From the NCBI GenBank assembly GCA_043381765.1, contig JBHJMP010000618.1, positions 1 to 40,236 of the forward strand: 40,236 nt of DNA. The letters are read 5' to 3'. The notes beneath the pieces were generated by a model, which was not told the DNA's origin, ran no database searches, and was given only the letters and a program-made list of their open reading frames with translations. The stretch is from Collodictyon triciliatum. Taxonomy: Eukaryota. The translations under genes and the position numbers were made by a program. Of the stretch, positions 1,115 to 39,913 are shown piece by piece. Each line of letters opens with the position of its first letter. Within the stretch, counting starts at the first letter, position 1.

Positions 1115-3196
1115 CTAGCACAAAGTGGCCTCACAACCCGTGGTCGAATATAAGAAAGCAAGTATATCCTCTCGTAGGGAAGGGGTTGATGAATCATATA
1201 TGTACCCTAAGCTTCCATTACTAAAAAGACAACAACGAAAAGTGTAATCAAAAGAGAGGATTTATGAACTGAAGGTATTGTATAAGACTGCGGTGGGCAA
1301 GGAGCAAACACTTCCACTTCAAGTGTGGGAAAATGGACTCTGGAGTCACATACTACTTTTATTCAAAACGTCTCTATGTTTCCCCTCGCGTAGCACAGGA
1401 TTTGTGGTTACCGCACCTTATCGGCGATTCTTTCTATCTGCAGAATGTTATTAGTCATGGGTCTATAATGTTTTCATAGGTGGCAAACTTTCATTTAAAA
1501 CTTAGCAACAGCAAATTGCTGTCAAAAAAAAAATTCCAATAACTATGGCATTACTTGATTGGAAGAAAGATCCAGTGACTGGAGCTGGTCCATATCAAAG
1601 AGGAAGGCTGGGACTTCGGTTAACTTTTAAAGGAAAATTGCAATATATACACATGAAAAATAGAGCTGACGTCGCAATTTATTTAGATTTCTTTAAAAAT
1701 TAATGATACTCTAAAGTTTTAATATGAGGAAACCTTATTGTTCGCCAAACAGAGTTTCGACAGATAGCTCAAAGATGTGAATGAAAGGGGCAGCGACTTT
1801 ATCTGATTCGTGTGTTTAGTGAATAATTTTGTATGAAAGCTTTCATGGTTGTATCATGCGATTTTTTCTTTTACTTGATTAAAAGATAAGTCTATTGACT
1901 TCAGGTCCTTGCACATGTCCACCAAATGTTGATTGCATCCAACACCTTTGTGGGCAAAGCTTCGATCGAACACGTCCACTCTCACATTCCAGAGCGGGTC
2001 GTTTCTTGCTACCAGTGATGATTTCTCATGGATACTGGCATCAACTCGAATTACATTCGGCAAGTATTCATATCCAACTCTTAACGAGTTCAACTTATTT
2101 AGATTTGAAACCCCAGCCGGCAGTGCAACAATCTTGGAGAAGAAAAGAAAGAAAATGACGAAATTATCCATACCAATACTAAATACATTTCATTTGATAA
2201 TGGATGTAGAGCATGATTGATTTTGATTTGCAATAAATAGGATGGGTTTACCGGATTTTTGCTTATATTAAAATAAACAAGCTCCGTTAAACCAGATATT
2301 TCTTCAGGAAGGCAACTGATTTCATTCTTGGATGCATCCAAGTAGGAAAGCACTTTTAATTTCGATATGCCTATAGGAAATGAGGGCACTTGATTTTCAT
2401 GAATGTCAAGCCACGTGAGACCAGCCAACTCGGCTATTCCGTCGGGCAAAGATATCAAGTGATTCCTGTATGATTCAATTTTTTCGATATGTACCCAACA
2501 CGATATACCATCAGGCAAAACGGAGAGCTGGTTGTTGCTGATGATAACTTGCTCCATATTAGTGAGGCTAGATATTTCGGGTGGCAGCATAGATATTTTG
2601 TTAAATTCTAGTCTCATTTTTTGAAGATTAAGCAATGCTGATAGTTCTGCGGGAAGATAGGAAATCTTATTCATGCGAACGAGAAGCTCTGTGAGGCCTG
2701 TGAGTGCGGATATCTCTTTCGGCAACGAGGTTAGCAAGTTCCCAGACAATTCAATACTTGTCAAGCCTGTCAAATGGGATATCTGAGGTGGCAACTCTGA
2801 CAATCTATTATCGTTTAAGAGCAGCTCTTTGAGGTTGGTCAATGCGCATGCTTGTGTCGGGAAAGTCATTATCAAGTTGCCTGCTAATTTCATCTCTGCA
2901 AGATGCACCAGCACGGATATATCAGTGGGAAGCAAGTAAATCTGATTGCGTGAGGCTTCAAGCCGGGTCAATCTTGACAATTTACTTATCCCGTTGCCGA
3001 AGGATGGGATGGCGTTGTCGGACATTTCCAGAACAACCAGGCGCCCCAGCTCGAATATACCGAGAGGGATTACTTGCAAGCTCTTGTTGCGGATGTCAAG
3101 TCTTGTGCAGTTTTCCAGAGGATGGAGAAAGGCCTCGGGTTCATACTTTGGCCCGAGACTCTTGAGACTTCTCAGTCGAGTGATGCGCTTCAGCAT
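1115..3196 (-). CDS. Leucine-rich repeat protein (typical LRRs), multi-exon
   Basis: Likely ATG at 3196 (MLKRITRL...). Exon 3196-2252 has many LxxLxLxxNxLxxLP repeats and ends at a GTAAAC donor. Further exons: 2132-~1875 (IVALPAGVSNLNKL...DLSFNQ), ~1800-1735 (SLPLSFTSLSYLSKLCLANNK), ~1623-1555 (LTEVPAFLFDMDQLQSLDLSSNQ). The 3' end (tentative TAG at 1115-1117) is uncertain. Confidence 0.85.
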
Positions 3197-3768
3197 GACC
3201 GTCTTTATTTTTATTTTTATTTTTAGTCCTTTTTGACAACAGGTGGGAATGTGGCAGTGTGTTTGGATCGGCTGTTTGCCTCGTTGCCGTTTGGCTTTGT
3301 TGTGTTTTGGCAGCAAGCGCGAATCTTGGCTGTGCAGCGCTGCAGATTTCAGTGTCATTGCGCCCTTTTCCACATATACATAAATGTCCATTCTCCTTTC
3401 TTTCTTAAANNNNNNNNNNNNNNNNNNNNNNNNNNNNNNNNNNNNNNNNNNNNNNNNNNNNNNNNNNNNNNNNNNNNNNNNNNNNNNNNNNNNNNNNNNN
3501 NNNNNNNNNNNNNNNNNNNNNNNNNNNNNNNNNNNNNNNNNNNNNNNNNNNNNNNNNNNNNNNNNNNNNNNNNNNNNNNNNNNNNNNNNNNNNNNNNNNN
3601 NNNNNNNNNNNNNNNNNNNNNNNNNNNNNNNNNNNNNNNNNNNNNNNNNNNNNNNNNNNNNNNNNNNNNNNNNNNNNNNNNNNNNNNNNNNNNNNNNNNN
3701 NNNNNNNNNNNNNNNNNNNNNNNNNNNNNNNNNNNNNNNNNNNNNNNNNNNNNNNNNNNNNNNNNNNN

Positions 3769-3817
<49 letters not shown>

Positions 3818-3824
3818 CGTTGTC
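3769..3824. repeat. (TTG)n microsatellite next to an N gap
   Basis: Direct reading of the sequence. Confidence 0.95.
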
Positions 3825-3830
3825 GAAATA

Positions 3831-5270
3831 GTATCTGATTATTGCCATATTGAAAGATTGCAGAACGTCGAATTCAAGCACCATAGAGCAAGGAGAACAT
3901 TTAAGAATCTTCCACCAGACGCTACTCAGAACGCCTGTTACTTTACCGTCCCCCTACGACAACCAGGTTCTATACTCTTATTTTTTGTACCCTTTTATTA
4001 CTCTCCCTTATCTTGATCATATTTAAATGATCATTTTTATGTGTATAAATGTCTTGATCCATTCATATTTTGATGTTAATATGTGTGTCCCATTTTTTTT
4101 TTTAAAAAAAAATCGCATACCCGAAATCACTGCAAAGTGTTGATTGACAATCAAATCATTAATCATGATTTTTGACGACTTCAATGATTAAAATAGATGA
4201 AAGACAAATCCAGCAACGTCAATTCGAGGAGGATGTAAAGTAAGTATATTTAACTTTAAAATCAAGTCTATGACAATCGTTCACCAACACTCTCCACCAG
4301 GAGGAGGAAGAATCGCGAGGCTGCGCAAACTTTTCGACAAAGAAAGAAGGAGCAGATAATTGACATGGAAGTGAAAATATCCTCATACGAAAGACAAATT
4401 ATGGAGTATGAAAAAAAGGTTTCTTATTCACATTTTTACCACCTCTTCATTGAAAATCAATTTTAACCTAACAAAGCCATATCGATAAAAGAGAAGTAAT
4501 GCTGAAGAAAGATGAAAATATTGAAAAAAAAGGAGGGAATACGTCGAATAAAAGAATAGAAAATACAGGAAAATAAACGAAAATTAAATAGTGTTTAAAA
4601 CGGTTTTAGATAAGACAATTGGAGGAAGAAAATAAGCAGTTGTATCAGCGCCTCTATTTTTATGAGAGTAGAATTCCTGAAGGTATAGTGGTGGAGATTT
4701 TCTTTTTGTTATGAGTCCTTTTTTCAAATATTTTCTCCGATTTTACCAAAGTATACTATATAAATTTTTAACCGAAAATAATAATAATATATTAGCATCA
4801 GAATATGAACCGTCCAACAATCCAGGAAACAAGAGAAAGTTAGGAGCACTTTTGGTAAATATATAGTGTTATACATTTCGTCTACCTATCTGCGATACTC
4901 ACAGATTTGGAATTTTAGATGGTTATGTTTGCTGTGTCCTTCTTGTTTGCACCAAGTTTTTTCATGGGCCCTCCTGTCACACAAGAGAACGAAGGCTCGT
5001 AAGTATTTGCCGTGCGTCCATTTGACAAACCCATATTTTGAAATACAGTATTTAACCTTTGGAGAATGCTCTAATTTTCTCGAGTGACACAATATACTGT
5101 CTCATTTTTCAATATATATTTTGCGTGCTGTTTGATCTGGGGTAGGCGTTACATCGGAAGAGCCTTAATGGACTATGACGGAGGAGTTGTCGCGTATCCT
5201 AAACCAGTACCACTGCCAACGAACAAAATGGTTTTTAGCCACAGAATCCCTAATATCCATATTTATGGGT

Positions 5271-5301
<31 letters not shown>

Positions 5302-5601
5302 TTTTGTCGAATACTAACATGAATCGTCAGGTCTACTACATGAGTAGTCCTACTCCCGTGCCGTCAATGTCTCTGCCTGATGGAAGGTAAAGAACTATGA
5401 AATGACCAAAACAACTTGGATCCATGTTTCATTCTCTTTGATAATCCTACCCTTATTTGGATGCTATTTGGCCATTTGAAAAAACTCGAAGTCGATACTT
5501 CAGCATTTTTGAAAAATGATGGACATCCATTTTCATTAACACCAAAGAATTATGACTGCGTGGTTTTAAACCTTATTTTTATTGTATTTTATTTTAGTAT
5601 T

Positions 5602-5674
<73 letters not shown>

Positions 5675-6891
5675 NNNNNNNNNNNNNNNNNNNNNNNNNN
5701 NNNNNNNNNNNNNNNNNNNNNNNNNNNNNNNNNNNNNNNNNNNNNNNNNNNNNNNNNNNNNNNNNNNNNNNNNNNNNNNNNNNNNNNNNNNNNNNNNNNN
5801 NNNNNNNNNNNNNNNNNNNNNNNNNNNNNNNNNNNNNNNNNNNNNNNNNNNNNNNNNNNNNNNNNNNNNNNNNNNNNNNNNNNNNNNNNNNNNNNNNNNN
5901 NNNNNNNNNNNNNNNNNNNNNNNNNNNNNNNNNNNNNNNNNNNNNNNNNNNNNNNNNNNNNNNNNNNNNNNNNNNNNNNNNNNNNNNNNNNNNNNNNNNN
6001 NNNNNNNNNNNNNNNNNNNNNNNNNNNNNNNNNNNNNNNNNNNNNNNNNNNNNNNNNNNNNNNNNNNNNNNNNNNNNNNNNNNNNNNNNNNNNNNNNNNN
6101 NNNNNNNNNNNNNNNCAAATTAACACATTCTTATTTTCCATATCTGAGTTTGCGTCATACGGTAGAGATCAATTGCTAAGAAAAAAAAAATTCAATCGGA
6201 CACCAGACATCAAGTTATCGACCCCACCGGAAATCAAACATCTCTGATAAAATCAATTCGACCAGCATCTGTTGCTGAAAGGTAAAATCTTACTTGGCCT
6301 TTTTTTCTTTTCCGGAAGAAAAGCGAAGCACTCACATGAGAGAAGCAAATTATGTACAATAAACTGGTAACCATCTCATTGCCCAAAATCCCCTCTAGGG
6401 ACATGCCACGAATCGAAGATACAGAGGGCGCATCGTATATATACTGTAATGACGCGTACCAGATTTCAACACAGCACGAACCAGCAGTAATTTTTCATCC
6501 TTTTTCGAAAGAAATAGAAAAAATTGTGACGGTCATAATCTTCACTTACTTTTTTTTTTTTAACTTACCTTTATGCAACGACAAGAAATTACCTTTTTAC
6601 TCTTATTCTTTCTTTTTTTTTTCCAGAGCAACTCTGTTGTTTCGCTACTGATTCCTGCATCTGTCCTTTCCACGAAAAACTCTACGACTGATCCAATGTG
6701 GAATAACGTGAGCCGATGCCTTGTATTTGGAATGATATAATAGACCCGGACAGACAGACAAACCAAGAGTTTTAACCCAAAAAAATCTTTCTTTTTCTTT
6801 CTAGGACACCATTGTGCAAGTCTCTTGTGAAATCCTCGATATTCGTGTCATTAACCCATTGCCAACCCCTGTCGTGTCTGATGGGAAATGA
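3831..6891 (+). CDS. Membrane-tethered bZIP transcription factor, ATF6-like (5' end probably in the N gap)
   Basis: Frame-compatible GT-AG exons ~3831-3966, 4198-4239, 4301-4418, 4610-4682, 4796-4854, 4919-4998, 5146-5230, 5331-5386, 6207-6281, 6399-6486, 6627-6707, 6805-6891. They encode the basic region KRRKNREAAQTFRQRKK, zipper ...IRQLEEENKQL, TM segment LGALLMVMFAVSFLFAPSFFMGP, luminal GRALM, and C-terminal SYIYC...VSLLIPA...IVQVSCEILDIRVI, ending at TGA 6889-6891. Confidence 0.85.
5602..5674. repeat. (TTG)n microsatellite running into an N gap, inside an intron of the bZIP gene
   Basis: Direct reading of the sequence. Confidence 0.95.
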
Positions 6892-7280
6892 ATCACTTGA
6901 ATAGGCCATCAAGACAAGATGAAAACTTACCCTAGCACAGGCTTTGACAGCAAAACACAGTGCTCCACACCAAGCCACCACCCCCAACCCCACCATCCAT
7001 GTTCCAAAAGTAATTCCGAGTTTCCCCCTCTTTTCCTTCTTTTCTTTTCTTTTTTCCACATATCATCTTCTCTCGACAAGAAACCCACAAAAACCCACAA
7101 AATCATTCTCGTGTGCCCAGTCATCCTTTTGCCTCAAAATTCAACCACACTAAAACCACGCTGCACCCGTTGATATTGTATTGTTGACAACCTAAAATGT
7201 ATCACCAAGAGAAAAACATTATGGTTCAAGTACCACTTTCCTTGCGTTTACTTTGTTAAGTTCGGGCCTTGATGGAGGGT

Positions 7281-7341
<61 letters not shown>
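7281..7341. repeat. (GAT)n microsatellite just downstream of the Rossmann-protein stop codon
   Basis: Direct reading of the sequence. Confidence 0.95.
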
Positions 7342-7356
7342 CAGGTGCAACCAGCA

Positions 7357-8403
7357 TCACCACTGCTGTGTCTGCGCCCACTCTGCAAAGGATGCGAAGC
7401 GCGGCTGCCAATGCGCCAGGACCTTCCGAGTCTCCGGATTGGCCAGGCGCTTCCCAAGCGGCCCATCCTTCCCTACAAAGGCGCAGCACGGACGAGGATG
7501 CATCGCGCGGGTGATTTGGGAGCGCTGCATGGGAGTCTGGTCGCAGCCGAGGAAGAGAGCGCGCCGAGATAATTGTGGCAGCGAGTATGGCGGAAGCCCG
7601 GCCGCATGGGCCAAAGCATGAAGACACAGAGACGCCGCATCTGAGTAGTGAATCAGGTTGACGAAGCCATCCGGTCGCATCGGGCTCTCCTTCATCCGCT
7701 GGTAGACGCAGTGAGGCCCTTTGCCGGACGAGTACAGGCCAGCCAGGCGCACAACAACGCCCCGGGCGTGGAGGACAAGCGCCTCGCACAGAAGCAGAAT
7801 CCCGCTCGTCGCCGACTTGCGCAGAAGTCCGTCCGCCAAGGATGCGTCAGCCTCGACCCAGTCCATGATGCGGTCGGCCAGCCTCTGGTATCGTACCTCG
7901 GCATCGTGCTCCTGGCCCGACGCAGCTGCCGTGTCCAGGCGGGCGATGAAGTCTGCATCTATACCGGACGGCCAGGACACAAGGTCGTCTTCGACGCAAA
8001 GCTCAGCGTGTTCGGCTGCGGCATAGACACCCGAGCTCGAGACAAAGAGAGCCGAGCGTGTGCAGTGGTCCAGCCCAAAGGCAACGAGGGCGAGATATTC
8101 CCGTGGGGTTTGGCATGTTGAGGGCGGCACGCAAATGATAACATGGTGGAATCTTTGGAGCGGCTCGGCTGTCGTTGCGAGTGCAAAGCGTGCCGGTCCC
8201 TCTGGAAGCTCGCTGCGTTGATGGTCGTCCATTTGTCTGCGCAGCTGCTCGTGGCGTGTTTTGGTCTTTGTGATTCCGGTTATGAGCCACCCGCGGAGTG
8301 CCGCAATGTCGGGTTTGGCGAGCTCCGATAGAAGGTGCGAGCCGAGTTCACCGCAGCCAAGAATGCCCAGGTGTGTTGGTGTTTCGGGCGTGGGTTCGGC
8401 CAT
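7357..8403 (-). CDS. NAD(P)-binding Rossmann-fold / atypical SDR protein (YeeZ / Arabidopsis At2g39080-like), intronless
   Basis: Likely ATG at 8403 (MAEPTPETP). Motifs: ILGCGELG (GxGxxG), VIICVPPS, LFVSSSGVY, LLLCEALVL, VVRLAGLY, NLIHYSDAA, FLGCDQTP, GPLGKRLANPETRKVLAHWQPRFASF. Confidence 0.85.
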   Translation of the reverse strand: MAEPTPETPTHLGILGCGELGSHLLSELAKPDIAALRGWLITGITKTKTRHEQLRRQMDDHQRSELPEGPARFALATTAEPLQRFHHVIICVPPSTCQTPREYLALVAFGLDHCTRSALFVSSSGVYAAAEHAELCVEDDLVSWPSGIDADFIARLDTAAASGQEHDAEVRYQRLADRIMDWVEADASLADGLLRKSATSGILLLCEALVLHARGVVVRLAGLYSSGKGPHCVYQRMKESPMRPDGFVNLIHYSDAASLCLHALAHAAGLPPYSLPQLSRRALFLGCDQTPMQRSQITRAMHPRPCCAFVGKDGPLGKRLANPETRKVLAHWQPRFASFAEWAQTQQW

Positions 8404-8698
8404 TGCTTTTGCGCCTCTTTTTTTTTTTTCTTCTAAAAAAAATATTGTTATTTCTTGTCCTTTGCCTCTATGTCTTTTCTCCTTGATTCGACACCAGTTG
8501 TTTGTTGTCGTGTTGTTTGTGACGTTTAATGTCTTTGTCAGTGTGTGGTTTATCCAGGAGGGGGTTTCTCCATATATCATTTTTCTTCTCCCCGTTTTGA
8601 AGGTTTATTGGTTTAATTCCGAGCGCAGAAAATTGTGGTCCCTTTATGGTACAGCACGCTGTCTTGGAGGCGGAGGCGGCGGCTAAGGGTTTGCTTCG

Positions 8699-10984
<2,286 letters not shown>

Positions 10985-11539: not shown

Positions 11540-12321
11540 NNNNNNNNNNNNNNNNNNNNNNNNNNNNNNNNNNNNNNNNNNNNNNNNNNNNNNNNNNNNN
11601 NNNNNNNNNNNNNNNNNNNNNNNNNNNNNNNNNNNNNNNNNNNNNNNNNNNNNNNNNNNNNNNNNNNNNNNNNNNNNNNNNNNNNNNNNNNNNNNNNNNN
11701 NNNNNNNNNNNNNNNNNNNNNNNNNNNNNNNNNNNNNNNNNNNNNNNNNNNNNNNNNNNNNNNNNNNNNNNNNNNNNNNNNNNNNNNNNNNNNNNNNNNN
11801 NNNNNNNNNNNNNNNNNNNNNNNNNNNNNNNNNNNNNNNNNNNNNNNNNNNNNNNNNNNNNNNNNNNNNNNNNNNNNNNNNNNNNNNNNNNNNNNNNNNN
11901 NNNNNNNNNNNNNNNNNNNNNAATCGACCTCTTGGTGCACCTGCTCCTGGCCAATACGCCCGAAAGAAGCATGTCTACAACCGTTTATGTCCCAGAGGCG
12001 CCTGTCACGAGAATCTGACAATAGGTTCTTCCAATTCTGGAATAACAGCACTCAGGTTTCCGCCAGCAACACACTTTTTTTCCTCTTTTTTTTTTTATGA
12101 TAAACGGTGTGACCATTTTTCTACTCCTTTCGCGAGGATTTCTTAAAGTCGTCTGTCAGCCAGGCTGCAGCCGCAAATCCCAAGCCAAAGGCGAGCCTCT
12201 TTGAATAGAAACAGGAAGGCAGCGGCATACAAACTCTATCACAAACCAACTTTGAATATTTGCAGGGTAACAACCTCACTGCAACTCACAGCCAACCAAA
12301 ACAGCCCATAGTTTCGTCCGC

Positions 12322-14768
12322 ATGGCCGATCTTTCTCCCAGCCAACTTGCTGATCTGCGCCTGACATACTATGTTGCCTGCGGATTCTCTTTGATCGGCT
12401 CCCAATATGTTCTATATCTGTTGTGGAACCCAAAGAATCGAACTGTGCTCACCACGCGCTTCGTGTTTTACCTGGCGATTTGTGATTGGCTGACTGCTTT
12501 TGGAGGCCTATTCGGCGCCTTCGGACTGAGCTCACTGGAGGAAGACACTGCAGAAATGGACGATGCTCTCTGCAAAACACAAGGTTTTCTAGACGACCTT
12601 ATGCGCAACATATTTTTGAAGCACACATACTCATTTATTGATTGAATAATGCATTACGATGACTATAATTCACAGGGTTCCTAATTCATTTTTGCAACAT
12701 CGCGGCTGCGTTTTGGAGTGTTTCTATTGCCGTTGTTGTCTATCGGCAAACGGTCCTGCTTGACCTCAATGTGCATAACTATCGCATTCGTTATTACTCT
12801 TACATATCCGTCCCATACTTGAATAGCATAATATTAAAAAAAAAAGAAAAGAAAAGAAAAGAAACCATATTGCGTATGAAGAACAGCTAGGCGATGAATA
12901 TACCTCAACAATCCCCAATCACAATATAATCCCTTTTCATTTTCTTGAATCATATTTGATTTTATTTAAGTAACTCTATTATGGGCTATCTTTTTACCCT
13001 GTGAAATTATTGTTTTCCTTAACTTATTTTACTTCTATATTGCAAAATCAGGTCAATAGGTTTGAACCGTTCTTTCATTTATTTAATTGGGGAGTTCCTT
13101 CAATATTCATGATTATCATTGTGGCACTAAATCAACTCGGTCCACAAAAACTATGGTGAGTACAAAAATAATGAATGAGTAACATTAGGTCTATTGAATT
13201 AAAAAAAATGATACAATATAACAGCGTAATCCAAATTCAAAAAAAAAAAAGAAAGGAAAAGAAAAGAAAAGAGGGGCATCTTAATTTCAGAACATATGAT
13301 AATTTCGTGATGACTTGTATGACATTTAAATAACGATCAAATTTGTTTAACGAATCACTCTATTATTTTATATATCGTAGGTGCTGGGTTTTAGAAGGAA
13401 AATATAATTTCAAGTATTACTTGTTTTACATTCCTATTGGGATTGCCTTGCTTGTCGGAATATTTCTCTATTTTAAAATCCAGAAATTTCTGTCCACTCA
13501 CATAAGAGTAAATTATTACATTTTTCTTGTTAATTATTTTTTTTAAAAAAAGGATCAATTATTCATTTTCGTTTTCTGATTATATAAATAGGTCATTCAC
13601 ACAAATATCATGCACAATTGAATTTTAATATTTGTCTTTCGATACAAGAACCCTTTTCTAAATTCTATCATAATACTATCATTATTATTTTTAAAACAAC
13701 AACAACAACAACAACAACAACCAGGACAGTGAATCTTACGGCTCACTCTTACCCGGGCATTTAATGCTCGAAAAGAGTGTCTCTGACCGGACTATTCAAC
13801 TCTTTTTGGTGTTTTTTTTCTGCTGGTGCTGGACATTTGTCAATCGAGCCTATCATGATATACATAAGGATGATGTTCAAGTAATCATAATATAATTATA
13901 TTGTCATCCTACCAGTGAATGATTCATCATCTGAAATGATTTAAATGCTAGATTAGATTGTCCAATTGATTTCATTTATTTATCTATTTACATATACCTT
14001 TGAACTTATGGATACTCTCTAATAGCTTAATTTTTCTAATATCTATCAATCTAATAATGTCCACATCCGTAGATGACACTTATGTTTTTAAACTTCTCCT
14101 TGACTCCATTGGAAGGGTTTTGTAATGCTGTCATATATGGCCGCATCGCACAAAAGAAAAAAGAGTAAACCCTTATTTTTCTATTTCTGAGTGATGTGTA
14201 TGTATGTATGTATGTATGTATGTATGTATGTATGTATGTATGTATGTATGTATGTATGTATGTATGTATGTATGTATGTATGTATGTATGTGTGTGTATG
14301 TATTTATGTATGTTCAATATCGAAATCCTTATAAGACACTTCACATACAATAGCCAACCGCATCTTAATTTCTAAACACGATAACAATAAATAAATAAAT
14401 GAAACTTCAAACGACGAGCAGAGCGCTGACGAAGCAAAGGATGGTCTTATTCCATGTAAGCCACCCGCAGACACATCACTCCTCACACAACAAATCAAAT
14501 AATTAGAATAATTCAATCGCTAACACGAATAACCGAAATATGTGCACATACACGCATCAGTAAACGCAGCTGCAGGCACATATTCAGATGCATACGTATA
14601 TTATGTTGCCCACTCTAACAGCCGTATCAAAAGGGAACACGAGACTCCTCAAGCGTTGCGTCGTTATTCCGTTCAGAACCGAGTTCGTATGGGACCGCGG
14701 AGAAGGCAGGAAAACCAGAGTGGCAGTCAGAGAGATGCACAAATCCCATTCCCGAGGAGATCGCTTGA
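12322..14768 (+). CDS. 7TM GPCR of the cAMP-receptor-like family (Dicty_CAR / GCR1 / Crl)
   Basis: Exons 12322-12583, 12676-12770, 13052-13155, 13381-13507, 13725-13880, 14073-14164, then tentatively 14422-14455 and 14622-14768. Motifs: SLIGS, RFVFYLAICD, LCKTQGFLIHF, FWSVSIA, FHLFNWGVP, LWCWV, LFYIP, FFFCW..TFVNR, PLEGFCNAVIYG. Without the last two exons the ORF stops at TAA 14166-14168. Confidence 0.9.
14197..14313. repeat. (TATG)n microsatellite
   Basis: Direct reading of the sequence. Confidence 0.95.
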
Positions 14769-15252
14769 GACGAACCCTCTCCCAAAGAAAGAAGAACCTC
14801 CTCCTCTTCCTCGTTCATACCCGTGTGCTTCTACCCCGCTCTCCTCTTTCACAACCACAAAGCTCCAAGACATAAACAGTGAGATTATGCAAGGAAAAAG
14901 AATAAGAGAAAGGAAATGGAAATGGAAATGGAAGAAAAAACAGCTGACTTGCGGAGCACACTCGACGCCACGAGCCATCTCTGAGAATCCCATTTGCCGC
15001 TCTTGCACTTGCTCTTGTTGCTGTTTTCCTTATCCAAACGCTCATCATCACACTCCTTTTTACAGAGGCAGAGAGTCGGTCGAGGCCGCCCACCAGTGCT
15101 TCTCGCTGGCAATCATTTATCCGTCCCCTCTCACTTGCGCCCCACCCTCCCAAGCCCAGCCCCCAGCCGAGAAGCAGAGGCGCCGCCCAAGAGCGACGCA
15201 AAAGAAAAGAAAGAACCATACATAATTTTCCTCTCCCGAAGCAAGGACAGCG

Positions 15253-20141
<4,889 letters not shown>

Positions 20142-28900: not shown

Positions 28901-31900
28901 ATTTTTCTCTCTCCGTAGCTTTCAATTTGCCATTTTTTATAACAAAATATGTGAAGAGAACATTTTCTAGAAGACCCGAGGAAAGTGTCGTCATAAGAAG
29001 TCTAGTGGAAAAAATCAAGAGTCAAATATAATTAAATTGTGTATCTTGAAATATGCAATCAAAGGTACTCTAGTCGATAACATCTTCATCGAAGCGTAGG
29101 TACTGTTCGAAGCCTCAACATAAGAAGTGGTTCTCGAAAGAGATGTGACCTCTACTAGCTGGGTAATTGGCGACAAGTATAAGTATAGAGCTTCTATAAT
29201 TCCAAATAAAATTTACATGTTCAAACCCTTTTGGTCGAATCTCGTTCTTCGTGGAGACATGATACCTCTTGGTCCCAAATTTTTCTGGCCCTAGCGTACC
29301 TTGATTGAACGAAAATGATGAATAATCTGCAAAGAGCACTGAAAGATTTTCTAGGAAAATAATATTTAAACATTTAAAAGTAAAAAAAATCCTATCACAT
29401 AACACCCAAACATAGCTCCACTATTTTATAGTGTCTATTATAATTTCATTGAATGAATAAATAGAAATATTGTTCAATATTGTTAAAATTGAATAAGTTT
29501 ATCTTATCATTTCTCCTTAGTTCTCTAAAATAAGATTTATATATAAAGAGATAAAGAAATAAAGAAATAAAGGAATAAAGAAAGAAAGGAACAAACAAAC
29601 AAAGAAAGAAAGGAACAAACAAACAAAGAAACAAAGGAATAAAGGAATAAAGAAATAAAGAAATAAAGAAATAAAGAAATAAAGAAATAAAGAAATAAAG
29701 AAATAAAGAAATAAAGAAATAAAGAAATAAAGAAATAAAGAAACNNNNNNNNNNNNNNNNNNNNNNNNNNNNNNNNNNNNNNNNNNNNNNNNNNNNNNNN
29801 NNNNNNNNNNNNNNNNNNNNNNNNNNNNNNNNNNNNNNNNNNNNAACAAAGAAACAAAGAAACAAAGAAACAAAGAAACAAAGAAACAAAGAAACAAAGA
29901 AACAAAGAAACAAAGAAACAAAGAAACAAAGAAACAAAGAAACAAAGAAACGACAAGATGGAAATTAGTAGCTACCGTTTCTCCAAGTCTTTTAATGAAG
30001 AAATTTCAAGACAACAGTTCGATGCTTTTCGGCTTAGCTCTTCATTCTCTTTTTTGAGGTCTGAAATAATCTCACGAAGCTCAACAACATTTTGCTGGTC
30101 GGCTCTAATATTGGTGTCGTGCTCTTCATTCATTTTCGGCAGTGGATCTCGAGTAAATGTGATTCCCAGAGAGCGAGCTTTGCTAGATACAGCAGCCTCA
30201 CGAATATCTTGAATCTCGTTCATTCCAGAAATGCATCTCAGAATTTCCTCTTTCTTATGGTTACATACATAACTAAGTAAACTATCATACGTCGAGAATT
30301 TTGACATAAATTGCAAATAAAATAATTAAATAGTTTTAAAAAACATTTTCTTACCTTCATTTCGATCATCTTAGCCAGCTTTGCTCTGTCTTCTGAAATG
30401 TAAGTTTCTTCAATCACAAACTCCTCGTTGCTAACGGATGGAGTTTCAAGAGTGACGTTGTTTTGATTGTGGATGTGCCTGGATAAAGCAACATCTATTT
30501 CACGAAGCATATCAAAGGCATAGAGTTGCTCTGCAACAAGCTCTGAGTGAGCTCTATGTTTTTCAGAAAGCCAAGCCGCTCGTAATTCATCCATCAATAG
30601 CATCAAATGAGGCGACCCGAACGCTCTCGATTCCTCGGTTCTCTGAAACTCCCTGAATGGCATATGAGTATTATTTAGTATAGGTGCTATTTGTTAAACA
30701 AAGTACAATATATGAAACAAAACAAAAAAGGAGGAAGCATAGCAAGGAGATCCCGGCATAGAATAAAATTCAAATTTCGCTCATCTTATTTGAAAAAAGG
30801 ATTGAAAAAATGTTACGCGTGTGCATTCTCTTTTATCACACGATTCATATCGTCGATTAAACCACGCAAGATTCCCTGATTGCATTTCATACGGTTAAAC
30901 CAGATAAGTATTGATATACATACATAGTGGATAATTACATAGCACATCACGCGAGTCTCATGTCCGTCAATACCTGTGATAACATAATGAAGCTTTCGTA
31001 TTCTCTCAGCTTAGATTCTTGAAGCATAAATGCATCCTGCTGATCATGAAATGTTTCTTGATGGTCAATACTTGAATAACCAATTCCAATTCCAATGTTT
31101 TGGTTATCTTTTCCATCTTTTCCATTTTCTGTAGGCAGATCAGGGACAATTTTGCTATCATTTACCTCAGCGTGAGTGAATTTTTGTCCCTGCATCGGGA
31201 AGTGACGTGGAACGGGGGTTAAGCTAGCCACACCCCTTATTGAATTTACCGTATCCCTTAGTTCTTGGTTTTCATTTTGTAGTTCTTGGTTTTTTTTCAA
31301 CACCAACGATAATTCAGAAAAGACTTGGTCCTTGGAGTTTCTCGATTCTTGCAGTTGGGCTTCCAGTTCCACAATTTTCGCTCTGCTGCTCTCCAGATGA
31401 AATTTAGATTCGCTTATTCGTTCGGTCAGGCTAGTGATTTGCTTATTCAGAGACGACTTTTCAGACAACAAAATATTTACTCTCTGCTCCAGAGTTTGTC
31501 TCTCCTCATTTGATGCCAAGTTTGGTGACTGATTCGATAATAGCAAATTTCGGAGTTCATCTATTTCTCTCTCCATATGAGATTTTAAAATTCTGTTGCT
31601 CTGTAAATCGTTTAATAAAGCCTGCTGATTTGCTTCCATGCTTTGCACTTGAATCTGGAGCTCGTCATTTGAAGATGTCAGGGAGCGAACTTTGTTTAAT
31701 GTTTCTTCTAATCTGTCTTGTATGTCTGCTTCATGTTCTCTGAAGTCAATAATTATTCTATCCTTATCTGAATTCGCATATTTCAATCCACTAACCTCCA
31801 ATAGAAGAGATCGGTTGTTTGTCTCTAATTGAATGATTGTTTCATATTGAGATTCAATCTTCTTAGATAATTCATTTACAAAAGTCTCTGCGTTGGCATA

Positions 31901-34900
31901 GTGTTGAGCGTTTGCCTCCAACAGAGCTTTCTCATGCATAATGCGACGAATTTCAGTCTGAAATTTTGAATTTTCTGTCTGCAAATCGCTCAATGTCGTT
32001 TGGCCATCCCTCAACCTCGATAGAAGCTGCATTTTCTCTGTAGCAGCAGCATCACCTTTCATTTTCTCTATTTTGATTTGAGAGTTTGCCTCAGCCAATT
32101 TCTCATTTAATGTGATGATATCTTTTTGGTACTCATCCACTCTCGTGCGTAAATCGTACATGGACGATTGGAAAGTCAGAAGATGCCTCATACCCTCTTG
32201 TTGTCCCACAGTGTCATACCGTGATGTTTGTATCATTCGACTTGATTGCAATTCGCTTAAAGAAACTTCAAGTTCATTAGATTTCTTGGTAAGAGAACGA
32301 ATTTTTTGGTTCAATGATTCAATCTCTTGTTCTTGATTTCGTATGAGTAATGTGAGCTCCATCTTTTCAGATTCATATTTCAGTTTCTGTTCCTCCCATC
32401 TTACAGATGCAATCGAGGGTGTTTGATGTCTCTCAGTAAAAGACTTCTCCTTTTCACTTGGAAACGACAGAAATCTCACAGAATATGATTGTAATTCATC
32501 CTCTAATCTTCTTATTGTACCAAGCAGCGATGGGATATCTCTTTCACTGTAGTAATTCTCTATCTTAGTGGCCTCTGACCCTCTACCAACAAAGTAAACC
32601 TGTTGAGAGTCTGGCATGGAGGTGAACATAAATGAGTTTTGCTGGGATAGAAAAGGTCGAGATTTCTTCTCTCTTGTCAAATCACTTATCAATTCTTCAT
32701 ATTTAAGATTCTCATCTGATAAGCTTTTGCATTTCCTCTTGAGTGTTTCAATTTCCATCTCCAGAATTTCCGGATTCTTGGCTTGAACCAGCGCCCCAGC
32801 ATAGCTTTCATACTTATTTGGACCTTGTTGTGAACTATTCAATTGGTAAGAGTATTTACTTTGAAGAGAATGGAGCTCATCTTCCATTTCTGCGAGACGT
32901 CTTTCATATTCTTTTTTTGTGGATTCCCAATTGAGTGATGCTGCGTTGAATCGGCTTTCTGAATCCTTTTGGTAATTTTGGAATCTATTTGTGATAGATT
33001 GTATATGAGCCTGCAAATTCCTCTTAGAGTCCTCCAGAGATGTAATTTCGCTCTCCAATGAAGTGATTCGAGAAGTAAGCCTAGCCTTTTCATTTTTAAA
33101 CTCAATTGTGGTTCTGGTTGATAGCAAGCCTTCCTCACTTGAATAAAGATTAAATTGTCTGCTTCGGCTTCCTTTACTTTCTAGCGTGGAACTCAATTCA
33201 TTTCTCTCCTCTGTCATGGCTTGTAGTTGCCGCTCCAGAGATGATACCTTATCTTGTAAGGTTGCAATTGTGCTCATTTTTTCTGGGCTCAGCTGGTCTT
33301 CAGAAGTTCTTGAATGATTTTCAGAATAAACTAGTTTAGAATGCATGTCTTTCATCACTAACGCGCCATACTGGGCTCTCTCTTGCAGCATTTCGTTATC
33401 TACAGTCCTTTGATTTGTGATGATTGCTTCCGGTAAGTTAGTCTTATGATTACGAATCTCTTTCTGCAGTTCATGGTTTTCTTCTTTCAAAGCAGATATT
33501 TGTGACTCCACTCCTTTCAACTGGGCTTCGTAGTTGTCAATGCATTCAGATAAGGCAGCTTTTTGATCGGCTGCAGCTATTAACAGTTGTGCAGAGAGCG
33601 AGTCCTTTTCTTTAAGGAGTTCCCTGTTATCAAAATCTAACTTATTCAATCTAATCAGAGAAGTCGATTTCTCCTCCTGTGCTTTCTGCAACTGTCTGTT
33701 CAGCTCCTTTATTTCTTCAACCAAGCTCGCCGTACCCTGTTGTGAAGAGGCCTCTAGTTGCCTTTGTAAGCTGATGATATGTTCCGTAGATGCAGTCAGT
33801 TCAGCTACCGCACGTTCACATCTTTGCTGATAGGATTTGTTCTCTGCTCGAAGCATATCTATTACCATCATTTCGTCCTTCACTTTTTTTAAAAGGCGTG
33901 CATTTTCCTCGGTCTCGCATTTCAAATGGGATTCAACAGAAGAAACTTTTCTTTTAAGCTCTTGAATTTCTTTTTCCATCGCCAACTTCTGATCTTTCAA
34001 ACCCCCTAACTCGACATTCGATGAAATCAGCTCGGCATTATTTTGCTCCAAGTCAGCTCGCATTTTCAACTCAGATTCGTGAAATTTTCTCAGTTCCATG
34101 TCTTTGGAAACCAATTCTTCTTCAAGAAGTTCGATTCGTGCATGGAGTGAAGCTGTTTGTGATTGTAAGGTTGCGATCTTTGAAGAATATTCGGATATTT
34201 CTCTTTGGTGAATGCTCTATAATAATAATTGGCCATTAATTTGTTTCCAAATAAATTGAAAGAAAACTATTAAAAGCAAGACCAAATGGATATACAAAAG
34301 GAAGTGAAAGATCAAAAGGACAAAAACGGATATAGGCTATAAAAACAGCTGATATGACCTTCAATGAATTCTGCTCCTTCATGAGTGAAGAAATCCGCTG
34401 ATTCAAGTCATCTCCACCAACATTTCGATTAGACTTTGATATGGGTTGCTCGACGATTGATAGAGTTGGAGCCGGTGGTTGATTTAGATGGACCGGCTCT
34501 GGTTTTTCATATGCCGCTCTTGGTTTACTTTGTTTTGCTGGCAATGATGCCTCGAGGTTAGCTTTATGTCTTGGTGAAGATTGTGCTGACTTTGTGAGAT
34601 TGCCCTATATGTCGAGAGAAGCAAAAAAATCATGATTCTATAACTTCACACTATGACTGATCCTTGGTGGCATTTAAGGTATTGAGAGAAGAAAAATATA
34701 AAAGGTGGTACACGAGGAACTGGATGTGGTTGATATTGTCATCTTTGATGCGGTTGAATTTATCATAGCAGCTTTGTAACAAATGAATCAAAAGGGTATT
34801 GGCTTTTATGAATTTTTTTTTTTTTATTCTTCCTTTCAATTTTGTGCAGGATGGTGAAGATGTTGGCATTGGCTTTTATGAATATATAAACTGACGAAGC

Positions 34901-35641: not shown

Positions 35642-38600
35642 TTAAACGAGAATCTGTTTGGGGAGGTTTCGGAACTTTCCAACACGCTCGATAAACTCCT
35701 GAAGCTGCTGCTCATTTTGATACGCAGGCTGAAGCTTGATGAGAAATGTTTTCCTGTCGGCCGCTTGGGTCTTGGTCTTTGGTTTCTCGTTGGGTTGCGA
35801 CGGGGGTGGATTGGTGCCAATGCCCGGATTCGAGGCATCGGCTTTAAACTCAGTCTTTGCGATGACACCCATGTCGATGAAGAGCTTGACAGCATTCTTG
35901 AGTGTTTCTGAGGATACCGAATCGCCGTATTCAATCTGCCCCTCCTGGTATAAGGTTTCTGCGATTGTCAAGAGTCGCTTGGCAAACTGCGCTTCCTCTG
36001 CAGATCGGTCGGGGAGCAAACCAAGCAACCCCAAAGATGCGGCCCAGTAGGAGTCGATGAACGGCCAAAACAAAGCGCACAGGAAGTCAAAGTGGATGGC
36101 TTTCCCGCTGGAGACAAGTGCTTTCTCACTCAGACGAGACGACTCAAAGAGCAGAGGTTTTCTGGGTGTTTCTTCAATCTCAAGCTCTGTTTCTGTGGCG
36201 GGTCGAGAAGGGTCGGATTCAACACAGATGACGCTTTCTTCGCTTATCATGAGTTCAAGAGTTTGGTAAAATGTATCTTCTAGGCTCACCGCGTTGGGCT
36301 TGAAGGTTAGTTCGTATTTCATCAGGTGGCTAAAGAATTTGACAGACTCCAAAAGGTCCTCCACCGGGACAGCCGATAGTAGGGACATGCTTGGCTGGTT
36401 TGGGGCTTTGTATTTTCTGTTCTTCGCCAGAGAGAATAGGGCGCATGCAATCATCCCTTCGTTGTTGAATATGTGGAGAATCTGGTTGCGGTAGTAGGCC
36501 AACTCGAGGCGGTGCTTATTGCGGGGACGGACAACAGTATCGAGGAGCTGCAGTTTGTTTGGTATTTTGATGAGGTCGTTCCCAAGACAATCAAGCGTGC
36601 GGTCAACAATGGTGGGTGTGTCTTCAAAGGCAGCCACCTGGCCACCGCGGGTTTGAATGAGCGACTTTAACCAGTCCACTCTCTCAATTAACTCTGCGCG
36701 ACTGATTCCTCTTGTGCGCATCGTAAGCAGAACGGACACAACCAGAGACGTGGGCATTGCAACAGAAACACGGTTGATATCGTAGGTGATTCGATAGCCG
36801 AGCGAGCGTACAAAGTGCCGGCGCTGCTCTTCGCTTGACTTTGGGTCGCTGCTCCCTTGAGCTTCTTTTCCACTTTGTTGTGACTCAAAATACTCTCGAA
36901 TGGAAATGGGGTCGGCAAACTTGACGCCAACCCGCCCGAAGTTGTACTTTAGATACTTGCGGGCAGAGAGAAGGTCAAAGACAGACTCTTTCTTCTTTTC
37001 AGCACCCATAAGCTCGGAAGAGTAGCTTTTTGTTTCGATAATCTTGTCATATCCTATACTGATAGGAACCACAGAAACATCATCCAAGCGACCGTCAAGA
37101 ACAGCACGCACGACTGTGGTTAAGAGTCCTAGCTTTGGTGGGAGAATTTTGCCGCTTCGGCTTCGTCCTCCTTCGATAAAGAATTCGACTGCGCAGGAAA
37201 TATATGTAAATAAATCAAATATCATGTAGATTTATTTTGAGGAGAAATTGGATTTTGCCAGAGTATACTGATGTAAACATTCACACTACAAAGTCAAAAA
37301 ATTCAAGAAAGAGATAAATCCATTTACTTATTACAAACAAAGAGATTTGGATAACTGGTGTTTTACCTGGGAATCCTTCCTGTAATAGATGTATGACGTA
37401 CTCATTGAAAACTGATGAATAAAGTTTGTCATCATTAAAGGAGCGTCTCATAAAAAAAGCACCCCCGTGTCTGAGAAAGAAACCCACCTGAGAGCCATTT
37501 TGAAATGTTACGAAAAAAAAAAGGAGCTTTTGTCTCATTGCTTTTAAAAAAACAAATGGTTGATAATAAGATCGCAGCATAGAAAAAGGGGGGTTTTAGG
37601 CAAAATAAGAGGGAAATAAGATTAAAAATACAAACGATCGGCATGTTCAGATTGTCTCCAGCAGCAATCATAGGAAGACTAAAGTCTTCTTTGAAGAAGA
37701 TATACGAAATTAAAAGATAATCCAAATGGCTTTTATGGGATGGAATAAGTACGACAGGGCCCTTCAAAGCAGCTTGGCGAATCTAATGAGTGATTGATAT
37801 TAATATTACACATGAAGCCACATAAAAGCTTTTAAATCAACCATTATTATTATTATTATTAATATGGGGAGTGTTAGAATAAATTATACATTGAATCAAG
37901 TTGTTTACAGCAGAATGATGAATAGTAAGGCATTCCTACTCAACTTGAATAAAATAAAGGACAAACCTTTTCTATACCGTCCTCATTGTAATCTATACCA
38001 CGGTAAATCTGGCTGAAGACTCTGCGAAGTATCAGGGCCATTATTCTTACTAAAAAAATACTTGGAGTGGCAGCAATTTGGTCAATAAAACCAAGACTTC
38101 TTCTCCATGTCTGGTCAACCTTCCTTTGGAAAAGAGAAGATTGTGCCTCAGGCGGGATTACAGGCTCGTTCTTTCGGGATAATTCTTGATTGAGTTTGCT
38201 CATTTCCAACTGATGCTCCTCCTGGGCTGTTTGGTGGACAACTCTCTGCAGGTGTTGAGAGCGGACAATAGACTGTCTCAAGTGTGTATAAGGCTTATTT
38301 TTCGGCCCTCGAACTGTCCTCGTTTCCCTTTCAAAGCGGTCTTGGAGCAAGTCCTGCAGACGACGGGCGAGTTCAAGGTCATCAACAATCACGCCTTCTG
38401 GCGTCATTTCCTGCTGCTGCCTCAAAAACTCTCTTAGGTCGATGGGATTGCCACCACGCAAGCGAACACGGTGCCAATCTCTGAGCAAAAGATAGAATTC
38501 ACGCAACAACCCTGGACTTTCCTTTTCCCCAAATACAAAATCCAGTATTCTGCGGGCATATGAGTCGGACTGAGAGGTTGGTGTTCGGTCCCATATTATG

Positions 38601-39913
38601 TTTTGAGGGCACAAGTAAATCGGCCGTGTCTGAGCTGGAGAGCGCTGCAGACGAATCAACTGCACGAGATGCTCAGCCGCGTCGTATCGATAGACATCAG
38701 GGTCAGGCAAACGCCCCGTGAATAGCAGCATGAAAAAGCTCTGCAGCGTCCACATGATGAACTCGCGGGCGCGAGTGAACCATGTTTGAGGGAGACGCAA
38801 AAAAAGCAAGACTGGACGGTCGCCAGCAACAAGGTCGCGAACCAGGTCAGAGGCCATCTGCCCTCGCATTCCGAGCAGGCGGAGAAAGCGACCCCAGAAG
38901 GAGCGCCATTGCAGCTTTGCAGGCAGCCATGGGATGAAAGTAAGTCCTGGAGCGAGATGTGTGCGGCGCAGTTTGTGTCGTACAAAAAGCAAATTCAGCA
39001 CAAGATAAGAAAGCCACGACTGTGTCTGAGCAACGTGAACTGGCGTTCCATCCTGCTGGGCATTATACAACTTGCGTAGGCGATCCGGCTCGATAAGAAC
39101 TTTGGAGAAGACTCGCTGTGCGATAATGCGCCATAATGGAGGCAGCTCAGAAACCATGGGCGTCCAGCTCTTTGCCTCGGCCTTAACCGCTGCCCGTTCC
39201 ACTTCGGCGGAATGGCTTTCTACATCGGGCTCAAGGCGTGGAGTGAATCCGTCCAGTGCAATTGTGCTGTATCCGTGGCCCCATCGCATGTCTTGTGACG
39301 AATTGTTTCTTGAGAGGCGACCTTCGCCTGACTCGTCCTCATTGAGTGAGTGGTGGCGCACGTGGTCGTGTCGGAAGCTGGAGCCACCTTTTGATTGATT
39401 GTTGACAATTGATGATTGATGATTGATGATTGATGATTGATGATTGATGATTGATGATTGATGATTGATGATTGATGATTGATGGTTGATGATTGATGAT
39501 TGATGGTTGATGATTGATGATTGATGATTGATGATTGATGATTGATGATTGATGATTGTTTGGTTGGAATGGAAATAAACAGATAAATAGTTAACAGATA
39601 AATAGATAAACAGATAAACAGATAACCAGGTTGCGGTTGACTTACTTGAATGCATATTCTGTGATGGGGAGCCGGAGGATAGGCCCTGGGGGAAAGTATA
39701 CGAGTTTGACGGGGTTGCGGGCGAAGCATTGTATGCAGCAGATGAGGAGCGTGTGCTTGGCTGGTGATTTGCCAGTTCGTGAAGAGACTGGATTCTGCGC
39801 ATCGGGAGCGAACCCAAAGTGCTTCCTCCGAGGTCGTCGCTGCCTGTGACTCCCAAGCGTTCGCCCCGTGTGTGCGGCGTTTGTGGCGTCGTAGACGGGT
39901 TTGGTTCGCCCAT
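35642..39913 (-). CDS. Glycerol-3-phosphate / DHAP acyltransferase (PlsB / GPAT / GNPAT family), multi-exon
   Basis: All four acyltransferase blocks are present: LIPSHKSHLDYLL (HxxxxD), GAFFMRR, EFFIEGGRSRSGK, VPISIGYD. Also AAGDNL and C-terminal LELAYYRNQILH, LFWPFIDSYW, SVSSETLKNA. ATG at 39913; stop at 35642. Confidence 0.93.
39393..39557. repeat. Heptamer tandem repeat (GATTGAT)n in the first GPAT intron
   Basis: Direct reading; it translates as SSIINHQ repeats in the unspliced ORF. Confidence 0.93.

Follow-up and report, generated by a model that had tools for sequence, protein, structure and literature searches.

A candidate ATF6-like membrane-tethered bZIP factor encoded by a gene of small exons in a diphyllatean protist

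Our analysis of a 40,236-nucleotide stretch of Collodictyon triciliatum DNA (contig JBHJMP010000618.1; this whole stretch is hereafter called the window) revealed a gene whose product is a predicted type II membrane-tethered bZIP factor. We consider it reasonably probable that this diphyllatean protein acts as an ATF6/bZIP28-like regulated intramembrane proteolysis switch. Its parts follow one another in the order of a conserved pre-bZIP motif, the bZIP, a KRK patch, one Pro-containing transmembrane (TM) helix, an R-x-L-x motif, and a lumenal tail; the N-terminal region of the protein is missing from the assembly.

Gene structure and transcripts

Exon modelling on the window placed 12 small exons with GT-AG borders on the + strand between 3857 and 6891 (Table 1), with GT at 11/11 donors and AG at 12/12 acceptors. 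Exons a–h form a single open frame of 207 aa, and exons i–l encode 123 aa followed by a stop. The original prediction had proposed about 12 small exons, starting at 3831 and splicing in frame. The number of exons held; the start moved to 3857, and exons h and i proved to be out of phase with each other.

Table 1. Exons of the modelled gene and the internal run of N, with positions in the window
Feature	Position	Strand	Content and support
Exon a	3857..3966	+	5' border from RNA contig; pre-bZIP motif HHRARRTFKNLPPDATQNACY at 3879-3941; joint a|b seen in RNA contig
Exon b	4197..4239	+	acidic/Gln-rich linker, with the initial Lys of the basic region as last residue; both flanking joints (a|b, b|c) in RNA
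Exon c	4301..4418	+	bZIP basic region RRKNREAAQTFRQRKK and first zipper heptads
Exon d	4610..4682	+	remainder of leucine zipper; joints c|d and d|e in RNA
Exon e	4796..4854	+	linker, juxtamembrane KRK at 4831-4839, start of TM helix from 4840
Exon f	4919..4998	+	rest of TM helix 4919-4969 (Pro at 4952-4954) and first lumenal residues; joints e|f and f|g in RNA
Exon g	5146..5230	+	lumenal; R-A-L-M at 5159-5170 inside conserved YIGR-x-L; RNA contig extends to 5221
Exon h	5331..5386	+	lumenal, Pro/Ser-rich; AG..GT borders, in frame with g; two spare bases at end
N run	5675..6115		bordered by (TTG)n repeat; at least one short lumenal exon must be inside
Exon i	6166..6281	+	lumenal; sequon NQT at 6232-6240; starts in phase 0
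Exon j	6399..6486	+	lumenal; block SYIYCNDAYQ, Cys at 6445-6447
Exon k	6627..6707	+	lumenal; block VSLLIPASVL at 6639-6668; sequon NST at 6678-6686
Exon l	6805..6891	+	C-terminal block IVQVSCEILDIRV at 6811-6849 (Cys at 6826-6828); TGA stop

The exons that had been proposed from the letters of the DNA were confirmed by spliced RNA contigs from a to g. In contigs from three runs of three studies, at 99% identity or more, all six junctions from a|b through f|g were found at the modelled positions, which is 6 of the 11 modelled junctions; exons h–l are modelled from sequence. The three contigs show conventional GT-AG joints only. One RNA transcript joins the bZIP exons to those encoding the TM helix and R-A-L-M, and these two parts of the proposed protein are therefore not split. 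For exons a–g, the gene is real, spliced, and expressed.

Our initial model allowed exon a to start at either 3832 or 3857. The RNA contig enters the exon at 3857, directly after an AG (3855-3856), and a further 86 nt of it belong to a preceding exon. In a search of the window, a 27-nt part of this 5' overhang had no match. From this, the 5' end of the gene probably lies in the N run at 3410-3768. In the lumenal part, two bases are left over at the end of exon h, whereas exon i starts in phase 0, so the two cannot be joined directly; one or more short exons must lie within the second N run. The Diphylleia protein described below carries approximately 10–25 residues at this place that have no counterpart in the window, and exon h aligns weakly to it.

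Predicted protein and its Diphylleia rotans ortholog

Exon c, which encodes the NREAAQTFR basic region, matched Pfam bZIP_2 (E 2.4e-8, 34.4 bits at a cut-off of 22.3) and bZIP_1 (E 7.1e-6). The zipper heptads carry I-I-I-N-L-I at the a positions and M-Y-Y-L-L-Y at the d positions. The TM helix, composed of 4840-4854 and 4919-4969, reaches a Kyte-Doolittle peak of 2.19 (19 residues) and contains an internal Pro in FAPSFF. The lumenal tail does not exceed 1.01 on this scale, so the protein has a single hydrophobic peak. The type II orientation is predicted from the positive-inside rule, with KRK on the N-terminal side of the helix, and from the presence of sequons in the tail only.

The predicted S1P-type site, R-A-L-M, is located approximately 15 residues past the helix and matches R-x-hydrophobic-x at the sequence level. 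In the best-known S1P substrates, the P1 residue is Leu. A helix-destabilizing TM residue is reportedly required for S2P, in work of 2000 by Ye and colleagues. The tail is at least approximately 180 residues long and bears sequons, one of which (NDT) spans the k|l junction, and two conserved cysteines; both cysteines lie in the known part of the tail, the other part being hidden in the N run, and both are kept in the Diphylleia protein. Pfam matched no family on the lumenal tail of either protein. All features named in the original prediction, that is, NREAAQTFR, KRK, the TM helix with Pro, R-A-L-M, the sequons NQT and NST, and the terminal blocks SYIYC, VSLLIPA, and IVQVSCEILDIRVI, were found where it had placed them.

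A HMMER search with the bZIP exon against 1.84 billion representatives returned one relative only, a 610-aa transcript of Diphylleia rotans (P0001; EukProt EP00002 P016724). This sequence is an unannotated transcriptome ORF, for which we found no published annotation. Exon c aligned with its residues 317-349 at 61% identity, exons a–h at 41% identity over 204 aa (E 2e-42), and exons j–l at 32% identity over 71 aa (E 1e-8) in the same order. Judged from these alignments, the Diphylleia protein is an ortholog, collinear from the bZIP to the C-terminus. The single gene originally proposed agrees with this finding, as the two halves of the model align in the same order along one Diphylleia transcript.

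The two species have in common the pre-bZIP motif HHRARRTFKNLPP, the basic region, and (K/R)RK before the helix, as well as YIGR-x-L at 15–17 residues past the helix, despite an identity of 41%. The exon a motif HHRARRTFKNLPPDATQNACY is near-identical in the alignment with the Diphylleia protein. At the putative cleavage site, RYIGRALM of the window aligned with YYIGRKLA, and the site in Diphylleia therefore reads R-K-L-A. Three tail blocks are common to both proteins, namely CND-x-YQ, SLL-x-P-x-SVL, and V-(S/T)-C-(E/Q)-(I/V)-L; IYCNDAYQ of exon j aligned with ILCNDGYQ, and the exon l block IVQVSCEILDIRV aligned with MLNVTCQVLEYQI. The Diphylleia protein matched Pfam bZIP_1 (E 1e-8), with the basic region N-R-Q-A-A-Q-N-F-R against N-R-E-A-A-Q-T-F-R of the window, and its TM helix also contains a Pro, in VTLPG. 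Its lumenal tail comprises approximately 205 residues with four cysteines and a Ser-rich C-terminal extension.

In P0002, a Diphylleia intron-retention isoform, the sequence diverges precisely where the window has its j|k junction, from which we infer that the two genes share one intron position. An AF2 model of the Diphylleia protein, computed without an alignment, shows a long helix at 312-377 and a second helix at 379-401, the equivalent of the TM helix, at a mean pLDDT of 42 with the tail below 50. When the Diphylleia tail was aligned with the separate exons of the window, the short exons were misplaced, and this alignment was not used for a profile.

Comparison with known membrane-associated bZIP factors

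The lumenal tail is the part in which a relationship to ATF6 would be recognized. The original prediction gives the lumenal end of ATF6 an MSIVLPA... block and aligned it with the C-terminal blocks of the window. Its ATF6 13-mer scored 39 (BLOSUM62) in the window; at the homologous place, the Diphylleia protein scored 34 (0/2000 shuffles each). Its ATF6 7-mer scored 21 in the window (11/2000 shuffles) and at best 13 in the Diphylleia protein, where 1526/2000 shuffles reach 13; the scores with both motifs are a lead rather than a homology test. Going by these motifs, the C-terminal lumenal block is probably homologous to its ATF6 counterpart. Pfam contains no model of the ATF6 lumenal domain, and a literature search with the two motif strings did not find either of them. 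The two tail cysteines of the window may be the equivalents of C467 and C618 of human ATF6 alpha. According to excerpts from PMC13266193, these are exactly the two lumenal cysteines of the human protein.

The original prediction of an ATF6/bZIP17/28-type layout stands, since all defining features described in PMC3645738 are present in the sequence. Like ATF6, the diphyllatean proteins combine a cytosolic bZIP, a basic juxtamembrane patch, and a single TM helix with a helix-breaking residue in a predicted type II orientation. They likewise carry R-x-hydrophobic-x, at the sequence level, in the lumen 15–17 residues past the helix, and a long tail with sequons. Two tail cysteines are kept in both species (the Diphylleia protein has two more), and the Cys-bearing C-terminal block fits the 13-mer in both. 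In contrast, the diphyllatean basic region NREAAQTFR differs from NxxSAxxSR, the signature that excerpts from PMC4736632 give for the OASIS-ATF6/HAC1 cluster. Its N, A, and R are retained, with Ala and Phe at the two Ser positions in both diphyllateans. The diphyllatean proteins further differ from ATF6 in their family-specific pre-bZIP motif HHRARRTFKNLPP, in the P1 residue of the site, which is Met in the window and Ala in Diphylleia within a short R-x-L-x motif, and in their CRuMs host, which lies outside Opisthokonta.

Plant bZIP17/28 have a cytosol-facing bZIP, a single TM helix, and a lumenal S1P site, and are released by S1P and S2P after ER-to-Golgi transport; they were recognized through structural similarity to ATF6, not through sequence (PMC3645738). 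The diphyllatean protein resembles these group B factors, in a comparison at the level of layout, in its bZIP, its one TM helix, and the predicted canonical S1P-type site in its lumen-facing part. It differs in belonging to another lineage, and the plant factors are usually called functional or structural analogues of ATF6.

If the diphyllatean protein is such a proteolytic switch, it would sit in the ER with its bZIP facing the cytosol, and its tail would sense a signal from the lumen, for which folding or redox stress is the likeliest candidate. The protein would then move to a compartment with an S1P-type subtilase and be cut at YIGR-x-L, after which an intramembrane protease would free the bZIP part to enter the nucleus.

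An alternative, which we consider unlikely although by no means negligible, is a lineage-specific membrane bZIP whose tail has no homology to the ATF6 tail, with a layout that is convergent or only anciently shared. Such a protein might be released by a rhomboid, by signal peptide peptidase, or through the proteasome, or might act while membrane-bound. Several results point in this direction: the sole relative among the 1.84 billion representatives comes from the same lineage, the tail matches no Pfam family, the basic region does not follow NxxSAxxSR, and bZIP17/28 show the same layout in factors that are not filed as ATF6 (PMC3645738). The neighbors in the ESM Atlas are also generic; the stretch from the bZIP to the end is nearest to generic bZIP clusters (0.92–0.94), and the tail alone is nearest to a “hypothetical protein” cluster (0.84, at the level of a lead). 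However, two species with only 41% identity have kept YIGR-x-L, its spacing to the helix, and the helix Pro, and the 13-mer matches the same block in both proteins with 0/2000 shuffles each, which argues against an unrelated tail.

Wider searches add the following. The HMMER scan of 1.84 billion representatives provided no bridge to ATF6, and a word-index search with Diphylleia residues 280-610 recovered only the query itself among 6000 candidates, both searches being weak at the distance of ATF6. A protein homolog search with the bZIP exon yielded one candidate, which was not significant. Among metagenome contigs, 593 pattern matches to a 48-aa bZIP query were obtained, of which tblastn confirmed 0, and an exact search with a 32-mer of exon i found 0. 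A PDB sequence search with the Diphylleia protein returned 28 matches at E ≤10, which are bZIP chains only and have CREB1 as the best (E 0.007); no ATF6 chain is among them, and exon l gave one irrelevant weak match. In the literature on CRuMs taxa, ATF6 is not mentioned among the matches listed, and a pan-eukaryote ATF6 survey is likewise absent among the matches listed.

Two further families, CREB3/OASIS and XBP1u/bZIP60, resemble the diphyllatean protein as membrane-associated bZIPs of the ER stress network. Tails of the CREB3 family are shorter and poorly conserved. We consider it improbable that the protein is of the CREB3/OASIS type, a sister family with the same proteolytic mechanism, rather than of the ATF6 type. 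In excerpts from PMC4736632, OASIS forms a cluster with ATF6, and members of OASIS share a conserved stretch ahead of the basic domain; the diphyllatean protein also has a conserved motif before its bZIP. However, the block-level resemblance at hand is to the ATF6 C-terminal motif of the original prediction, and the Diphylleia tail is long at approximately 205 residues.

Less probable still is an XBP1u/bZIP60-type factor, in which the anchor is removed in the mRNA through unconventional splicing by IRE1. The motif AAQT-x-R-x-RKK in the basic region resembles that of XBP1. Unspliced bZIP60 mRNA likewise codes for a bZIP that faces the cytosol and has one TM helix; however, it lacks a canonical S1P site (PMC3645738), whereas R-x-L-x and a long tail are conserved in the diphyllatean protein. 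XBP1 and bZIP60 depend on IRE1 hairpins, and a scan for such hairpins (CNGNNGN loop, stem of at least 4 bp) found 0 in 624 + 372 nt (996 nt in all) of spliced mRNA from the visible exons. The RNA contigs, with GT-AG joints only, also argue against this type. Finally, it is scarcely credible that the bZIP-TM exons and exons i–l are an artefact of two genes split by the N run, as the RNA coverage of a–g and not h–l and the phases of h and i could suggest, since a single Diphylleia transcript contains both halves in the same order and exons i–l share its strand with the other exons, lack their own start, and end in the C-terminal block of the family.

Implications for the origin of the ATF6 arm

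An ATF6-like membrane bZIP that is conserved between two diphyllatean species places a switch of this predicted kind in a deep lineage adjoining Amorphea. Together with the plant factors, this suggests a wide distribution among eukaryotes, and possibly an ancient origin, of ER bZIPs that are released by proteolysis.

ATF6 is described in the literature as metazoan or holozoan, with analogues in plants (PMC3645738 and excerpts from PMC4736632), and the latter excerpts place the ATF6-specific domain in holozoans only. Homologues of ATF6, S1P, and S2P are reported to be absent from amoebae. It is quite possible, and we propose it tentatively, that the ATF6 lumenal sensing domain, including the C618-type Cys block, occurs in Diphyllatea; the ATF6 arm would then date at least to the ancestor of CRuMs and Amorphea and would not have arisen within holozoans or animals. 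If this is true, the reported absence from fungi and amoebozoans would represent loss or divergence past recognition. Homology of the tail to ATF6 would also allow the age of this UPR arm to be tested directly and provide a distant sequence pair for finding lumenal residues relevant to sensing.

The host had been described as a protist in the original prediction, and it is a Diphylleia relative within CRuMs, outside Opisthokonta. This diphyllatean lives in freshwater. The adjoining acyltransferase gene in the window also has its best match in Diphylleia (69%).

Structure and transcripts of the membrane-anchored bZIP gene

The window consists of eukaryotic DNA whose exons are short and whose introns are AT-rich, and it contains five N runs. 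On its + strand the bZIP gene was modelled as 12 exons (a-l, 3857-6891), with GT at 11/11 donors and AG at 12/12 acceptors. Exons a-h form one open frame of 207 residues, and exons i-l encode 123 residues up to a TGA stop at 6889-6891. Each of the sequence features named in the original prediction, from the basic region to the terminal blocks, was present at its claimed position (see table). RNA contigs from public runs (n = 3, from three studies, each covering a small share of the stretch) were aligned to 3831-6900, where their identity to the window was ≥99%. All six junctions of exons a-g were as modelled, since introns a/b, b/c, c/d, d/e, e/f and f/g, all GT..AG, were precisely skipped. 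Successive contigs carried an upstream exon plus a; a, b and c; c, d and e; and d, e, f and g, none reaching exons h-l. Because they overlap from a to g, the bZIP, TM and R-A-L-M exons share one mRNA and are not separated by transcripts.

Two points of the original model need correction. The proposed start at 3831 has to be abandoned, as the RNA contig enters exon a at 3857, behind an AG at 3855-3856, and bears 86 nt from a further upstream exon. A 27-nt part of this upstream sequence was absent from the window; thus the 5′ part of the gene probably lies inside the N run 3410-3768. The expectation that the exons splice in frame held within a-h and within i-l but failed at h/i, where exon h leaves two spare bases and exon i opens in phase 0. 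Owing to this mismatch, at least one short exon must be hidden in the N run 5675-6115. Long (TTG)n microsatellites at 3769-3818 and 5600-5674 border the two N runs that cut the gene. Assembly probably failed at these repeats, which would make the hidden parts gaps in the contig, and the nominal N-run lengths (359 and 441) may not reflect true distances.

Features of the window
Feature	Position	Strand	Remarks
Leucine-rich-repeat protein	2099-3409	-	LRR_8 E 6e-29; extends into the N run probably hiding the bZIP gene 5′ end
NREAAQTFR	exon c	+	bZIP basic region
KRK	4831-4839	+	
Single hydrophobic helix		+	interrupted by intron 4855-4918
R-A-L-M	5159-5170	+	
Sequons NQT, NST		+	
Blocks SYIYC, VSLLIPA, IVQVSCEILDIRVI		+	
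Exon weakly similar to Git3 (glucose-receptor-type GPCRs)	12271-12645	+	E 2e-4, below Pfam cut-off
PlsB-type glycerol-3-phosphate acyltransferase, large gene	35642-40003	-	Pfam GPAT_C E 2.4e-87; TIGR03703 plsB on upstream ORF

The Diphylleia ortholog and the bZIP domain

Exon c was assigned to bZIP by Pfam (bZIP_2, E 2.4e-8; 34.4 bits, cut-off 22.3), and the zipper heptads run on into exon d; Pfam gave no match on the eight further pieces scanned (exons a, d and f; lumenal g and i-l). A HMMER search with the 40-residue bZIP exon against 1.84 billion representatives returned one protein at E ≤0.001, P0001, a 610-aa EukProt transcriptome ORF of Diphylleia rotans with two isoforms, which was 61% identical. 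By local BLASTP, the spliced a-h product aligned with P0001 at 41% identity over 204 residues (E 2e-42), and the i-l product aligned with its C-terminus at 32% over 71 residues (E 1e-8), with the order kept. That exons i-l are part of another gene is argued against by this single Diphylleia transcript, which is collinear with both halves of the gene model. Isoform P0002 departs from P0001 exactly at the position of the j/k junction, and we infer that this point fits a retained intron at a position common to both species.

The two proteins share a pre-bZIP motif, HHRARRTFKNLPP-x-A-x-QNACY, the basic region, the basic patch preceding the helix and the helix itself. YIGR-x-L is kept 15-17 residues beyond the helix (R-A-L-M in the window, R-K-L-A in P0001), as are the C-terminal pieces I-x-CND-x-YQ, SLL-x-P-x-SVL and V-(S/T)-C-(E/Q)-(I/V)-L. 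Residues 1-25 of P0001 are acidic and hydrophobic (DFGDDLDFLLPP), resembling a short acidic activation motif and presumably that at the ATF6 N-terminus; the window counterpart is probably hidden in the N run. As the best matches of two window genes are from Diphylleia, at 41-69% protein identity, the source would be a Diphylleia relative, a diphyllatean of the CRuMs group, distinct from D. rotans.

Architecture, putative mechanism and relation to ATF6

The original prediction put forward a 13-residue and a 7-residue motif as belonging to the ATF6 lumenal C-terminus. The 13-mer scored 39 (BLOSUM62) on the window C-terminal block and 34 on its counterpart in P0001, a sequence new to the motif's proposer, and 0/2000 shuffles reached the score in either case. 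The 7-mer fitted the window (11/2000 shuffles) but not P0001 (1526/2000). We regard the 13-mer match as a lead. A word-index search with P0001 residues 280-610 matched only itself, metagenome scans for relatives found nothing, no Pfam family model matched the tail, and PDB sequence searches had no ATF6 chain among their matches. ESM Atlas neighbours were generic bZIP clusters only, the tail alone falling in a "hypothetical" cluster (0.84), and AF2 without an alignment gave the P0001 tail a pLDDT below 50. ATF6 alpha has two lumenal cysteines, C467 and C618 (PMC13266193); the known part of the window protein's tail has two, both kept in P0001, but P0001 has four in total. We rate homology of the tail to the ATF6 lumenal domain as about an even call.

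The predicted layout comprises a cytosol-facing bZIP, a juxtamembrane basic patch, one Pro-containing TM helix, a membrane-near lumenal R-x-L-x and an extended tail bearing sequons and cysteines. This is the layout by which ATF6 is described and plant bZIP17/28 are recognised (PMC3645738). The basic region counts against ATF6 membership, as it has Ala and Phe in place of the Ser residues of NxxSAxxSR, the signature of the OASIS-ATF6/HAC1 cluster (PMC4736632). Going by sequence, the likeliest mechanism is ER retention followed by regulated cleavage and bZIP release: the protein would be kept in the ER, a lumenal signal would lead to export and a cut by an S1P-type subtilase at YIGR-x-L, and an intramembrane cut would then release the bZIP to the nucleus. 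Removal of the anchor by IRE1 splicing, as with bZIP60 and XBP1, finds no support, since IRE1-type hairpins (CNGNNGN loop, stem of at least 4 bp) numbered 0 in 996 nt of spliced mRNA and the RNA contigs show conventional joints only. We class the gene product as ATF6-like in architecture and, probably, in mechanism.

According to PMC4736632, whose sampling lacked CRuMs taxa, the ATF6-specific domain is found in unicellular holozoans and not in fungi. Dictyostelium is reported to have no ATF6 ortholog (PMC6025073), and amoebae are said to be without ATF6, S1P and S2P homologues (PMC8507491). No link between ATF6 and CRuMs taxa was found among the literature matches listed. Our finding is a further ATF6-like membrane bZIP, now in a deep-branching lineage; only proof that the tail is the sensor domain of ATF6 would give it wider significance.

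Neighbouring genes

The leucine-rich-repeat gene and the bZIP gene would be divergent, with very little space between them. The acyltransferase best matched Diphylleia rotans (69%), followed at 38-42% by mostly unnamed NCBI or metagenome records, the few named ones being MAGs of Myxococcales and other bacteria (P0011 at 42%, for example); the other eukaryotes listed (Cyanophora, Rhodelphis, Mesostigma) scored lower. It looks like a bacterial-type enzyme that is patchy across eukaryotes. About eight copies of a 7-residue unit, HQSSIIN, lie within 38900-39600 (-) in the N-terminal part of its frame (ORF 37940-40003) and may represent either an intron or an insert of low complexity. A single open frame of 1089 aa at 30947-34216 (-), an unusually long intron-free exon for the window, had no Pfam family; Glu, Leu, Lys and Ser are abundant in it, and by eye it resembles a coiled coil. 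G+C islands of 52-66% occur at 7000-8700 and 15000-16300, the rest of the window being at about 35-40%. A 415-aa ORF in the first (7357-8604, -) had no Pfam, NCBIfam or PDB match, and the second contains long ORFs overlapping in several frames, with dipeptide-like repeats.
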